Source: an uncultured Pseudomonadales bacterium (GTDB lineage Bacteria; Patescibacteriota; Microgenomatia; UBA1400; UBA1396). From it: DNA of 64,000 bases. Both the position numbers and the translations under genes were made by a program. Location: assembly GCA_964511175.1 (NCBI GenBank), contig CAZEEI010000004.1:27401-91400 (forward strand), read 5' to 3'. The notes beneath the pieces are model-generated. The model searched no databases, was not told where the DNA came from, and worked only from the letters and a program-made list of their open reading frames with translations. Numbering within the stretch: position 1 is the stretch's first letter; each line of letters begins with the position of its first letter. Below are positions 21,903 to 27,978 of this stretch, in pieces.

Positions 21903-21977
21903 GGTGGTAGTAGCTCAGTTGGTTAGAGCGCCGCTCTGTGGAAGCGGAGGTCGCCGGTTCAAGTCCGGTCTATCACC
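21903..21977 (+). tRNA. tRNA-His (anticodon GTG) with an encoded G-1
   Basis: G-GTGGTAG-TA-GCTC-AGTTGGTTA-GAGC...CTCTGTGGAAG...GCCGG-TTCAAGT-CCGGT-CTATCAC-C. The extra 5' G pairs with C73. Anticodon GUG. Confidence 0.85.
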
Positions 21978-22016
21978 CATTTCGATACTTGTAGACAAAT
22001 AATTTTTAAATTGTCT

Positions 22017-22622
22017 TTAATTATCCACACTTTTTAGAGATTCAAACTTCTCCGCAGCTGCATTCATCAAAGGTGCAATTTCAACCACCCTTTCTAGCGG
22101 GTCTTTTAAAACTATATCGAGTGTGTGATTCAACAGTACGAAGTTCGATCCAAGTCGCGTGATGATCTCACGGCGCTTCACATCGCCCCCGTTTTCAAAC
22201 TCCTGACGGGCTTCTCTCACTCACTTCTTCTTAAAAAAATCAGCAAGTGGTGACGGAAGTTGAGGCTGAGGACTTGGCTGGCCAGCAATTCTTAGTATTT
22301 GATCAAGGGTCATGGAAGGTGGCGCAACCACTGGTGCCAATCTAAACACGGATTTAATCTTGTTATTGATCCAATCCCAAGCACTTTTGTTTAAAACACC
22401 ATTAGCTCTCGAGAGATCTACTTTAACAATAAGAAATAGTAATCCAGGATTTCTAACAATAATTCCATCAGCGAGTACTTTTTCTGAAAGATGAGAACTA
22501 ACAATGTAAACGTTGGGCAAGTAATGCCACCAATCTGATATCGGCAGATTAATCATGGTGTCATGTATCTGTTCATCAGTGTAATGTGGCTGCTGGTGGT
22601 TAAAAACAACTAAGTAGTCCAT
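22017..22622 (-). pseudogene. About 201-codon ORF interrupted by a single in-frame TGA (ORFs 22221..22622 and 22017..22220 are contiguous in one frame)
   Basis: The 133-aa ORF ends ...FFKKK-TGA. The very next codon is GTG, which opens the 67-aa ORF in the same frame. It has a Pro-rich linker (PSPQPQLPSP). TGA is a genuine stop elsewhere in the window, so this is a nonsense-interrupted gene or a readthrough candidate. Confidence 0.35.
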
Positions 22623-22624
22623 AA

Positions 22625-22969
22625 CTATTTTTTCTTCTGCACTTCGAGGGGTTGGTAAAGTTCCACATACTCTTGACTAGCAACTTGAGGGTTCTGCTTA
22701 TCACCTAAGAGTTTTATGTCTAGTTTCCTCATTTCTAACGTCTGTCTCTCTGACCAAAGCCTATCTGGCTTGAACACCCATAGTAGAACAAGAACAGTAC
22801 CCAAAACTAATGATGAATACATCCAAATCATTCCAAATCCCATCCAAACAGAGGCAGTGCTGAAAATAACATAAAACCAAATGACTATATATGCAGGACT
22901 GGATCGGGTGACAACTTGCACTAACGCACCAAAGGCTTGTAGGGATAGCTCGTTGTCTGCTTTCTCCAT
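22625..22969 (-). CDS. Small two-TM membrane protein (island gene)
   Basis: 114 aa with two hydrophobic helices (AYIVIWFYVIFSTASVWMGFGMIW / LVLGTVLVLLWVF). AT-rich. Its stop is 2 nt from the next ORF's start. Confidence 0.4.
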   Translation of the reverse strand: MEKADNELSLQAFGALVQVVTRSSPAYIVIWFYVIFSTASVWMGFGMIWMYSSLVLGTVLVLLWVFKPDRLWSERQTLEMRKLDIKLLGDKQNPQVASQEYVELYQPLEVQKKK

Positions 22970-23044
22970 ATGAATGGTATTATTATAGTATCAAACTAAT
23001 CAAAAATATACTTGATACTACACAAGTAAGTTAAATATTACTAG

Positions 23045-23968
23045 GTGAAAGTTTGTATGGCAAACAAAAGGAACTGGTTTATTGGAATTCAAAAAAGAAA
23101 TCCAGATGATGGAAAAGTCTCCTCTATATCACAGCAAAGATCAATCTCTGAAGGTGAAAAGAATAAACTTTCAAGTAACCTTGCTTTGCTAAACGAAGTT
23201 ACACAAGGATCACCCTATCATCGTTTGAATGAAAAGTATGAGGGTTTTAGTCGCCATATAGTGAAAATTATAGAGGACTCAAGAACAAAAAGATTTAATC
23301 CAAAAGATCTAGAGAGCATCTTTGAAAAATTAGACGACTTACTTTCTGCATTTAGAGCTTTTGATGATAAAACTAGCCACAAAATTTCATTAAGATATGG
23401 TAAGCAATCAAAGGAACTCTCCATTTTTAAAGAAGCTTTATCGTTTGAATTTGATAATGTATTTGCATACAGATTGTGTTCCCAGCTTAGAAACTATAGT
23501 CAGCATGCGGGCTCTCCAATAACAAATATAAAATCGCATAGTTACCTTAAAAATGATCAACCAAAATCTACTTTGAGTATCATTATGGATAGTGAGAAAT
23601 TACTAGAAGGCTATTCAAAATGGCAATCCAGAGTAAAAGAGGAGCTTAAAAAAATCAGCGGTGCTATCGATCTGGTACTCATCCTTGATGCATTAATGGC
23701 CTCATGCTCGAGAGCTTATTCTAAGTGTCTTATCAGCCAAGAGAAAGAAATTAATCAAGCTAACCAGGAAGTAATCTCTACTATAGGAGAGCTAAAAAGT
23801 GATGAATTTCCAGCAATAATGGAGTTTATCATATCTGAAAGCAATCCTAAGGAAGAGATACGGCTAAATCTTCAACAAATTAATATGTATGAACTATTGC
23901 AGATTCCAAGCTTGCTTCAGAAAGCACATTTCATCGTAGACTCCACTAGTATGAATAGGCAAAAATAA
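23045..23968 (+). CDS. Hypothetical protein with an R-x4-H (HEPN-like) motif (island cassette gene 1)
   Basis: 307 aa and AT-rich. Motif ...SQLRNYSQHAGSP. Likely start at ATG 23057, which is preceded by AGGTGA. No other recognisable domain. Confidence 0.4.
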   Translation: MKVCMANKRNWFIGIQKRNPDDGKVSSISQQRSISEGEKNKLSSNLALLNEVTQGSPYHRLNEKYEGFSRHIVKIIEDSRTKRFNPKDLESIFEKLDDLLSAFRAFDDKTSHKISLRYGKQSKELSIFKEALSFEFDNVFAYRLCSQLRNYSQHAGSPITNIKSHSYLKNDQPKSTLSIIMDSEKLLEGYSKWQSRVKEELKKISGAIDLVLILDALMASCSRAYSKCLISQEKEINQANQEVISTIGELKSDEFPAIMEFIISESNPKEEIRLNLQQINMYELLQIPSLLQKAHFIVDSTSMNRQK

Positions 23969-26145: not shown

Positions 26146-26157
26146 AAGAACCAAATT

Positions 26158-26469
26158 ATGGGCGCAATGACCGAAATTAACTCCCTAGTTCGCTTTCCAG
26201 GAGATTTTAATTTTCAGACTCTACAAAAGGGTCTCCTGGTTGATCTAACACTTGAGCGGGAAAGGATTCTGCCGCTGCGCATCGCCTTATTGTATTTTCA
26301 CACCGATTGGAATTTTTTAGGTTACTGCCGCGTTTTATCACTCCGCCAAAGTGAGGGTAAAACTTACCTCAAGGTCGAAGTGTTAACTGTCTTTTCCCAA
26401 GAAGAACAAAAAGTTTACAAAAACAAATTTGTCGAAGCGGGTAGATTCACTGGAGAAGCTAAGTATTAG
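26158..26469 (+). CDS. Hypothetical protein
   Basis: 103-aa ORF following higA. No motif recognised. Confidence 0.3.
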   Translation: MGAMTEINSLVRFPGDFNFQTLQKGLLVDLTLERERILPLRIALLYFHTDWNFLGYCRVLSLRQSEGKTYLKVEVLTVFSQEEQKVYKNKFVEAGRFTGEAKY

Positions 26470-26936
26470 GTTCGGTAAATCTCAACCACTCCCGTGTCGC
26501 AGTGTAAGAAAACCAGTCTAGCTGGACCCTGGTCTAAATCCTCACCCACTATTTTAATGCCAGATTCTTGTAGCTTTTTCCTAACAATTGGTGATTTTCT
26601 CCGACTACCTACTAAAATATACCCCTCCCCAGAGAGGGTCGCTTCAAGATCTTGTAAACCCGAGTCGCCAGAAATATACAGGGCGTGTAATAGGGTATCA
26701 ATCACTTTCTCTGGTCTCATCTCCTCAGGAGCGGTGGAGAATCCGGAAATATGAGCCAACATACCCATCTTTCTACGACGATCGTAAAGAGTAATTACTA
26801 AGCAAGTGCCAACACCATCTGTCCCAATTAAATCGCTTTTTCTGCCAATTTTATAATCATCTTGATCAACAAACTTATATCTTACATGATCGTGAAAACC
26901 ATCAACTGTTCGGAATCTCTCTAAATTTGTACCCAT
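26466..26936 (-). CDS. CheD-fold (glutamine deamidase-like) protein, orphan
   Basis: ...GTDGVGTCLVITLYDRRRKMGMLAHISG... resembles the CheD Cys/His signature (G.C[VI]A[VI].L.D......G.[AM]H.M). No chemotaxis genes are present in the window. Confidence 0.35.
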   Translation of the reverse strand: MGTNLERFRTVDGFHDHVRYKFVDQDDYKIGRKSDLIGTDGVGTCLVITLYDRRRKMGMLAHISGFSTAPEEMRPEKVIDTLLHALYISGDSGLQDLEATLSGEGYILVGSRRKSPIVRKKLQESGIKIVGEDLDQGPARLVFLHCDTGVVEIYRT

Positions 26937-27024
26937 TGTGACCGTAAGCGTATGCTTAATACTAGTTTGATATTATACATCTATATAAATAATTAGAGGA
27001 TTTGCCTACTATAATTAAGCAGGT

Positions 27025-27345
27025 ATGAAACTAAATCCCAAAATCTCCCTAAACCACAAAAATCATGATCAGTTTTACCAAGAACTTAATGATGCTAAGC
27101 AAAAGGTTATCATTGGCGGTATCTATTCCCATTATAAATATCCCGAAAATACTTATCGGGTCACTGCCTTAGGTTTTACCGAAGCTACCGATGAGGTTTG
27201 TGTTATCTACCAAGCGACTTATGACCCGGATTTAGTTTTTATTAGACCAGTGTGCAGTTGGTTAGAAACTCCGCAGTGGAACGGCCAAAAAGTACCCAGA
27301 TTTAAGCTGGTAAGTAGAAAAATGGCCTATACGCCGAACTGTTAG
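27025..27345 (+). CDS. DUF1653-family protein
   Basis: GGIYSHYKYPENTYRVTALGFTEATDEVCVIYQATYDPDLVFIRPV...VPRFKLV matches the DUF1653 consensus (GxYRHYKGGxYxVLxxAxHSETxExxVVYQALY...WVRP...VPRFExV). Confidence 0.55.
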   Translation: MKLNPKISLNHKNHDQFYQELNDAKQKVIIGGIYSHYKYPENTYRVTALGFTEATDEVCVIYQATYDPDLVFIRPVCSWLETPQWNGQKVPRFKLVSRKMAYTPNC

Positions 27346-27978
27346 TTAAACACTCACTTCTTTTTGGGAAAGTGAGCCAGTAAATGAATCAATTTGCGCG
27401 GTGGTAATGTTGGCTAAATCAGTACTCACATTCTTGGCCATTAAATCTTCTAAGTGCTGTGCCGACCGCAACCTTGCCGCTAAGTTTTCCACTGGTACCC
27501 GGGCGTTTAGTTCCACAATTCTATCGCGAATCGATAAAATCCCCCGCGGCCCAATCCTCATATCACAATAGATGGGGATCAAAGACGCCAAATCATTTTC
27601 GGCAATTAACTGGTCGACATAGTGCCATTCTAAATTATCAACCAATTGTTGGGAGACATCGCTTAAGCCAATTTCCCGAAATATTTGTAGGGTAGCTTGA
27701 TGTTCGTTAGTACCAAAGTGATCGATCAAAAAACGAATATTTTGTTCTACTTGCTTAAGCTCCGATTGGGATTTAATAAACTGAGCTTGTTTAGTGATGT
27801 CAAAAGTAACTGGCTTGGCAATGTCGTGAAAGAGGAGGGTTTGAATAATCGCGGTTTGGTCGAGCGCTTGACCAGTCCACGCTGCCAGAATCAGCGAACC
27901 ACATGCCGCGGTCCGCAACATATGAATCTGGAGATTTCGGGGAGTGTAATATCGGGCGTATATTTCCTGCACTATCAT
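27346..27978 (-). CDS. HD-domain phosphohydrolase
   Basis: LLFHDIAK motif (H...HD) with downstream His/Asp residues. 210 aa. Confidence 0.55.
   Translation of the reverse strand: MIVQEIYARYYTPRNLQIHMLRTAACGSLILAAWTGQALDQTAIIQTLLFHDIAKPVTFDITKQAQFIKSQSELKQVEQNIRFLIDHFGTNEHQATLQIFREIGLSDVSQQLVDNLEWHYVDQLIAENDLASLIPIYCDMRIGPRGILSIRDRIVELNARVPVENLAARLRSAQHLEDLMAKNVSTDLANITTAQIDSFTGSLSQKEVSV

Follow-up and report, generated by a model that had tools for sequence, protein, structure and literature searches.

A probable horizontally acquired accessory island with a portable defense-type module beside tRNA-His in a Patescibacteria-like genome

Composition of the region and assembly support

The window analyzed here, a stretch of 64,000 nucleotides (nt) from contig CAZEEI010000004.1, carries a gene for tRNA-His (GTG) at 21904..21978 on the plus strand (ARAGORN; Rfam tRNA, 67 bits), and the DNA that follows it, from 21979 to ~27345, is AT-rich. 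We consider this region to be, quite probably, a composite accessory island that was acquired horizontally by a Patescibacteria-like genome and that has a portable defense-island module as its core. Judged from its sequence, the core corresponds to positions 22199-26145. The module is laid out with o133 and o114 on the minus strand, followed by o307, an HNH endonuclease gene and o302 on the plus strand, and then by a higB-higA pair.

An earlier note on this DNA had reported a GC drop directly after tRNA-His, and this was borne out by the GC and codon-usage analysis. The GC content was 0.509 for positions 17500-21903, 0.395 for 21979-22198, 0.364 for 22199-26145, 0.403 for 26146-27345 and 0.439 for 27346-31000. 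A maximum-likelihood fit with two change points (log-likelihood gain 95) placed the boundaries at 21980 (support 21960-22360), which is 2 nt past the tRNA-His 3' end, and at 27160 (support 26060-27460). GC at third codon positions (GC3) was 0.28-0.34 in o133, o307, o302, higB and higA, compared to 0.476 ± 0.076 for 64 open reading frames (ORFs) of the backbone (z from -1.8 to -2.5), and the combined share of lysine, asparagine and isoleucine was 0.20-0.25 in the island genes against 0.15 in the backbone. The note also had the backbone composition resuming at the HD-domain and L,D-transpeptidase genes. GC does rise there, from 0.40 to ~0.44, but it does not return to 0.51.

An assembly or binning chimera, in which the DNA of two organisms was joined at the conserved tRNA, would offer another explanation for this shift. 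In sample SRR8925769, the Logan contigs L083 and L001 end inside tRNA-His (21939) and inside o302 (24598), respectively, leaving 21940-24597 unbridged, as might be expected from a chimera; these breaks may also reflect graph branching at the conserved tRNA, low coverage or strain heterogeneity. However, an independent 18.5-kb Logan contig from SRR8925802 (L082) was 100% identical to the window over 19218-31844, including both junctions and all lesions of the HNH gene described below. It spans GT, tRNA-His, the island, HD, L,D-transpeptidase (LDT) and BipA, and the right junction is also covered by L001. At both junctions and at all HNH lesions, the independent assemblies of the two samples agree to 100%. 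The assembly is trustworthy, and a chimera is extremely improbable.

The module shared with an unrelated contig

A homology search with o307 revealed an 82%-identical protein on L084, a 30-kb metagenome contig, which is accompanied by L085 from a second sample. Window positions 22211-24107 correspond to L084 4927-6825 (L084/L085), 24109-25397 to 7109-8413, and 25627-26145 to 10568-11086, all at 75-80% nucleotide identity and with the same gene order of the module. The GC content of L084 (38.6%) is like that of the island and unlike that of the window backbone, and its remaining genes are unrelated to the window. A complete Gabija system (GajA 1.7e-106, GajB 7e-104; PADLOC) lies directly left of the module in L084. 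In the window, 22199..22234 on the plus strand hold a gajB-like 3' stub of 11 codons, TPDGLLSLTSS followed by a stop codon, which matches the L084 GajB C-terminus (TTDQLLSLTSS and stop) in 27/36 nt and, at the protein level, in 9 of 11 residues and the stop, with one serine codon changed from AGT to TCA. By this alignment, the stub marks the left end of the module common to L084 and the window. On the right, the homology ends at the higA stop codon.

The finding of this module, at ~80% nucleotide identity, in an AT-rich contig with otherwise unrelated genes and another genomic context supports its horizontal acquisition, as proposed in the note. A native region with low GC due to local mutational bias or low expression would be in line with other mild GC dips in the window (16.3-17.2 kb and 30-31 kb) and with the GC of just 0.44 in the right flank. 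It is difficult to reconcile, however, with the presence of the same block in a contig whose GC matches the island, with the Gabija gene stub at the edge, and with HD homologues located in unrelated contexts, and we regard it as highly improbable. The match of the 11-codon stub to L084 GajB indicates that the module descends from a Gabija-linked ancestor and has lost gajA and gajB. A truncation, on arrival or later, left the last 11 gajB codons only.

The leftmost genes of the module are o133 (22221..22622, minus strand), encoding a protein of 133 amino acids (aa) of unassigned function, and the co-oriented o114 (22625..22969, minus strand), encoding a small predicted membrane protein of 114 aa with a hydrophobic central stretch. 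The o133 protein had no family match in profile searches, and shares 93% aa identity with its 133-aa L084 orthologue (ratio of nonsynonymous to synonymous substitution rates, dN/dS, 0.04); the o114 protein is 67.5% identical to its 117-aa orthologue (dN/dS 0.08). The ORF o67 (22017-22220, minus strand) straddles the junction and shares one frame with o133, from which it is split by a TGA at 22221-22223. This in-frame TGA had been taken for an inactivating lesion. The L084 o133 protein is also 133 aa long and ends at the same stop, with unrelated DNA beyond it (gajB sequence in L084, o67 in the window), so the codon is the native o133 stop, and neither a lesion nor a recoding site. The sole match of o67 among 5.8 billion protein clusters was itself, and it is probably a junction or spurious ORF, not a gene. 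It was also considered as a relic, either of the C-terminus of a serine integrase or of the HD gene. The former was rejected because o67 showed no similarity to three serine recombinases and had no homologue at all, the latter because read-through from the HD gene would not continue in the frame of o67, and because the HD protein is of normal length. The statement that every ORF of the region is an orphan or hypothetical was true only of o67, the other ORFs belonging to small or known families.

The HNH endonuclease gene is a pseudogene at 23974..24397 on the plus strand, whose sequence is split over three reading frames and has matches to Pfam HNH and HNH_5. In a DNA alignment with the intact L084 gene (231 aa), the reported frameshift was verified and extended to four indels, all of them present in the independent assembly L082. 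An in-frame 282-nt deletion between 24108 and 24109 removed the core of the N-terminal domain, and 1-nt deletions at ~24215 (in an A-run) and between 24235 and 24236 scattered the motif VKKTVWERDQGKCVICG over three reading frames. The fourth lesion, a 14-nt deletion between 24378 and 24379, removed the native stop codon and the spacer. The HNH motif is still present, below the cut-offs (HNH 19 bits, HNH_5 17.7 bits), and the nuclease has presumably ceased to function in the window. Like modification-dependent restriction HNH nucleases, the L084 orthologue combines an N-terminal domain of ~165 aa with a canonical C-terminal HNH (CVICG...HFDHD...N...LCARHN). In contrast to them, its N-terminal domain has no family or solved-structure match, so that a reader function is conjecture, and the window copy is a pseudogene.

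At the right end of the module, both genes of the toxin-antitoxin pair are intact. The HigB-like toxin (25565..25870, plus strand) belongs to the upstrm_HI1419 family of the RelE/ParE superfamily, with a match to TIGR02683 (1.2e-36; 125 bits, cut-off 62.85) covering 2-94 of 95 positions and a Gp49 Pfam match. The HigA-like antitoxin (25873..26145, plus strand) is a helix-turn-helix (HTH) protein of the dnstrm_HI1420 family, with matches to TIGR02684 (1.6e-27; 95.5 bits, cut-off 53.7) and PF21716 (8.5e-24; 83.7 bits, cut-off 27) and 81% identity to the L084 copy. With both families above the curated cut-offs and the toxin gene first, the HigBA-like pair named in the note is indeed present, and it constitutes the sole complete known module in the island. 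The pair shares with the type II HigBA system (HI1419/HI1420) the toxin-first order, the RelE/ParE toxin, the HTH antitoxin, the 3-nt spacing and a promoter-like site upstream of higB (25530-25558). It differs in riding at the end of a larger module. It may act as an addiction or stabilizing module, or as an abortive infection (Abi) module.

In L084, a 2.1-kb insert (8414-10567) carrying a short-chain dehydrogenase (SDR), a metallophosphatase and a methyltransferase lies between o302 and higBA and truncates the 5' end of higB, while higA persists. Compared with the lesions in the window, this indicates that each copy decayed in its own way. Between the window and L084, dN/dS was 0.04-0.14 for every gene, the surviving HNH fragments included, with dS of 0.6-2.7. 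This indicates purifying selection, so that for most of their history the genes were functional and the inactivation of HNH was comparatively recent; the same values show L084 to be a distant cousin and not the donor. The suggestion of partial decay therefore stands for HNH, with its four indels, and for gajB, which is down to 11 codons, but not for the TGA.

A non-coding stem-loop after o302 (25339..25397, plus strand; L084 8355-8413) was ~90% identical to L084 in the pairwise alignment and is more conserved than the flanking genes; the L084 homology breaks at its 3' edge. It is probably an operon terminator. On the minus strand it looks superficially like a T-arm. It matches no Rfam family, and its identification as a tRNA 3' fragment or attachment (att) site was rejected, as Rfam searches gave no support even when truncated hits were included.

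The o302 and o307 families and their neighborhoods

The gene o302 (24384..25292, plus strand) encodes a HEPN-like protein of 302 aa with the motif R204-x4-H209 (SKRDxAVHxGSL), and neither R204 nor H209 varies among 14 sequences sharing 27-77% identity. It shares the R-x4-H motif and the defense neighborhoods described below with HEPN RNases of Abi and toxin systems, such as the MNT-HEPN toxins, the C-terminal HEPN of AbiA, Csm6 and LsoA. It differs from these in its length (~300 aa), in having additional helices and a beta-hairpin downstream of the motif, in that no cognate MNT or antitoxin was identified, and in giving no Pfam, NCBIfam or PADLOC HEPN family match; nor was there a PDB sequence match. 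We infer that o302 is a candidate stand-alone effector of the abortive-infection type, which would act as a HEPN-like RNase through R204 and H209.

The gene o307 (23057..23968, plus strand) encodes 303 aa from its ATG, the ORF opening at a GTG at 23045, and represents a rare family of seven clusters with the invariant motifs FRAFDD, RYGK, LSFEFDN and LRNYSQHAG. Its structure was modeled confidently (predicted local distance difference test, pLDDT, 87.7), and Foldseek returned nothing at E < 0.06 and no informative structural neighbor. Hints of a HEPN fold were an invariant R-x4-H motif (RNYSQH) and an hhalign match to the o302 family at a probability of 10%, and nothing else; compared with HEPN RNases, the resemblance is in the motif only. 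The protein is a candidate defense effector, possibly also a stand-alone one of the abortive-infection type, and its fold lacks a solved counterpart. A paralogous relationship between o307 and o302 was rejected in view of the same hhalign result and a non-significant BLASTP comparison. PDB sequence searches with o307, o302 and the HNH N-terminal domain gave nothing useful. The order o307-HNH-o302 is common to L084, L085 and the window; distant members of both families occur apart, and the order is therefore not obligatory.

Relatives of both families were found next to known defense genes. A relative of o302 lies 19 nt downstream of gajB in L099 (GajA 3.3e-146, GajB 7.9e-107). In L096, another is located three genes from HamB of Hachiman (2.9e-277) and directly after a PD-(D/E)xK-like protein, recognized from motifs read by eye and without a family match. 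Further relatives follow an LmuB-like ATPase (Lamassu-like, 5.5e-19) and an RNKLLH-motif protein in L097, and an HNH_5 protein near a large serine recombinase and tRNA-Asn in L101. For o307, one relative adjoins PDC-S19 (1.3e-79) in L087, one adjoins an ABC-3C protein on a Bacillus mycoides plasmid (L103), and another is found on pBS32; o302 had no match in the plasmid collection. The defense or addiction character ascribed to the region is supported by HigBA and by these homologues beside Gabija, HamB, LmuB-like, PDC-S19 and ABC-3C genes. As regards Gabija, the module abuts the full system in L084 and an o302-family gene trails gajB in L099, whereas the window lacks GajA and GajB and keeps the last 11 gajB codons. 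The published accessory protein of type II Gabija, GajC, is MazF-like (PMC13069673), and an identification of o302 with GajC was rejected, as the two are unrelated.

We also considered a degraded prophage or phage satellite. The o307 protein matches phrog_30874, and its distant homologues occur near a GP3_package gene (L086) and near terminase genes (pBS32). Such an origin is nevertheless very improbable, as this segment of the window contains no structural, replication or packaging genes, IMG/VR holds no relatives of o307 or o302, and o307 had no match in phage GenBank records.

With greater reserve, a more specific role may be put forward, which we regard as possible but somewhat doubtful. 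The o302 and o307 families could be undescribed anti-phage effectors, with o307-HNH-o302, with or without o133 and o114, forming a new multi-gene defense system that travels with Gabija, and with o302-type genes serving as add-on effectors to sensors of the Gabija, Hachiman or Lamassu type.

The site at tRNA-His and the meaning of the island

The position directly after tRNA-His would also be expected for the remnant of a tRNA-targeting integrative element, inserted by a site-specific recombinase at the tRNA-His 3' end and later deprived of its integrase and distal att repeat. The GC change point exactly at that 3' end agrees with this explanation. So does L101, in which positions 4916-8879 hold, one after another, tRNA-Asn, an ORF of 219 aa, a gene for a large serine recombinase (Resolvase 5e-20), one for a 239-aa protein with an N-terminal HNH, and an o302-family gene. 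This arrangement has the appearance of a true integrative element next to a tRNA, with an o302 relative as cargo. A large serine recombinase of the same family is also encoded at the start of the window (3-1121, plus strand; AT-rich, GC 0.40; Recombinase 1.9e-13 and Zn_ribbon_recom), where the window boundary truncates it. Over 354 aa, it shares 45% identity with the recombinase of L101. The gene points with its 3' end at that of a tRNA-Glu gene (1298-1372, minus strand) and therefore probably marks the border of a further integrated element left of the window.

Other observations argue against an integrative-element remnant at tRNA-His. The earlier note had found no integrase in the island, and in agreement with this, profile searches detected no recombinase domain in any island ORF, and tblastn with three serine recombinases gave no hit or fragment in 21900-27500; no tyrosine-integrase query was run on the DNA. 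It had likewise found no direct repeat of the tRNA-His 3' end, and a search allowing up to 3 mismatches detected no copy, the best local alignment scoring 9.5 compared to a shuffle mean of 9.7. The module in L084 has no tRNA within the 16.7 kb read. In the window, the recognizable module begins ~220 nt from tRNA-His, at the truncated gajB and without an att-like junction, and deletion or illegitimate recombination at the edges therefore fits better than a clean integrase event. Adjacency to the tRNA is the sole support for site-specific integration there, and taken together, we consider the integrative-element remnant rather unlikely.

A direct repeat near both island edges (22218-22248 and 27351-27381) has 12 nt in exact agreement, CACTCACTTCTT, within 31 nt at 77%. 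Sharing of 12 nt was seen in 1/20000 shuffles of the two boundary windows, which makes a chance match unlikely. Both copies lie in native coding sequence, the left one ~20 nt inside the module and the right one in the HD gene, which has a normal length. The repeat may represent microhomology used in recombination, an att or target-site duplication, or chance.

Two segments flank the core within the proposed island. On the left, 21979..22198 (GC 0.395) is of unassigned origin, has no homology to L084 and holds most of o67. On the right, 26158..27345 (GC 0.40, with GC and GC3 values as the evidence) is not found in L084 and contains o103 (26158-26469, plus strand), a CheD-like o156 (26466-26936, minus strand; CheD models at 2.5e-9, far under their cut-offs) and a DUF1653 protein (27025-27345, plus strand; 1.2e-12). 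Its inclusion in the island is plausible by composition but unproven. The right flank (27346..28677, minus strand) consists of the HD-domain gene (210 aa) and a YkuD L,D-transpeptidase gene, both assigned by Pfam matches; HD homologues are 207-215 aa long and end at the same position, showing that the HD gene is intact. No intergenic base separates DUF1653 from the HD gene, with which it converges (27343-27348), and o103 and o156 converge with a 4-nt overlap (26466-26469). The absence of space for a terminator in both pairs points to recombination joints or to very tight packing. A 28-nt inverted repeat, 75% complementary, has its arms at 22984-23011 and 26950-26977, each in a divergent intergenic (promoter) region, between o114 and o307 and between o156 and DUF1653. 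In a Patescibacteria metagenome-assembled genome (L092, 269-8630), a 52%-identical HD homologue adjoins a block encoding a large serine recombinase and a Prim-Pol. On this account, the HD gene may be accessory as well, and the right flank (GC 0.44) variable DNA too. A second small compositional outlier in the window is an isolated AT-rich NUDIX hydrolase gene (16641-17078, minus strand; GC 0.363, GC3 0.288, z -2.5), located upstream of the gene for ribosomal protein L21 (17105-17413).

Several points weigh against a horizontally acquired defense island. With dS of 0.6-2.7, L084 is a distant copy and not the donor, and the flanking segments 21979-22198 and 26146-27345 lack a counterpart for comparison. 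The searched collections contained no close relative of the organism and no empty site, so the insertion is inferred rather than observed: a GT466 scan of GTDB genomes gave no match, the closest BipA in GTDB was ≤ 58% identical (the best including Candidatus Pacebacteria) and without synteny, the exact tRNA-His sequence was absent from JGI metagenomes, and HD homologues were ≤ 59% identical, one of them annotated as Patescibacteria, and all in unrelated contexts. The window contains no complete known defense system, PADLOC giving weak HNH matches only and nothing for o133, o114, o307 and o302, and for o307 no fold class is backed by structural evidence.

Genomic islands and horizontally transferred genes of Patescibacteria have already been reported to be enriched in defense functions (PMC12455944). 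The island in the window shares with tRNA-adjacent and defense islands, including those of Patescibacteria, a sharp composition shift, a tRNA neighbor, a cargo of toxin-antitoxin and nuclease genes, a mosaic structure, gene decay, and homologues amid known defense systems. In contrast to them, it has no integrase, no tRNA-derived direct repeats and no complete known defense system. It is one more example of a defense-type genomic island, here delimited in detail and otherwise ordinary.

Patescibacteria are thought to carry few classical defense systems. The island provides a concrete and well-delimited case of defense-module exchange into a Patescibacteria-like genome. It also illustrates how such modules erode, with Gabija reduced to a stub, HNH dead and the toxin-antitoxin pair retained. 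Its practical value lies in drawing attention to two rare families without annotation, o302 and o307, which are reasonable candidates for defense screens because of their neighborhoods, which include Gabija twice, Hachiman, a Lamassu-like system, PDC-S19 and ABC-3C.

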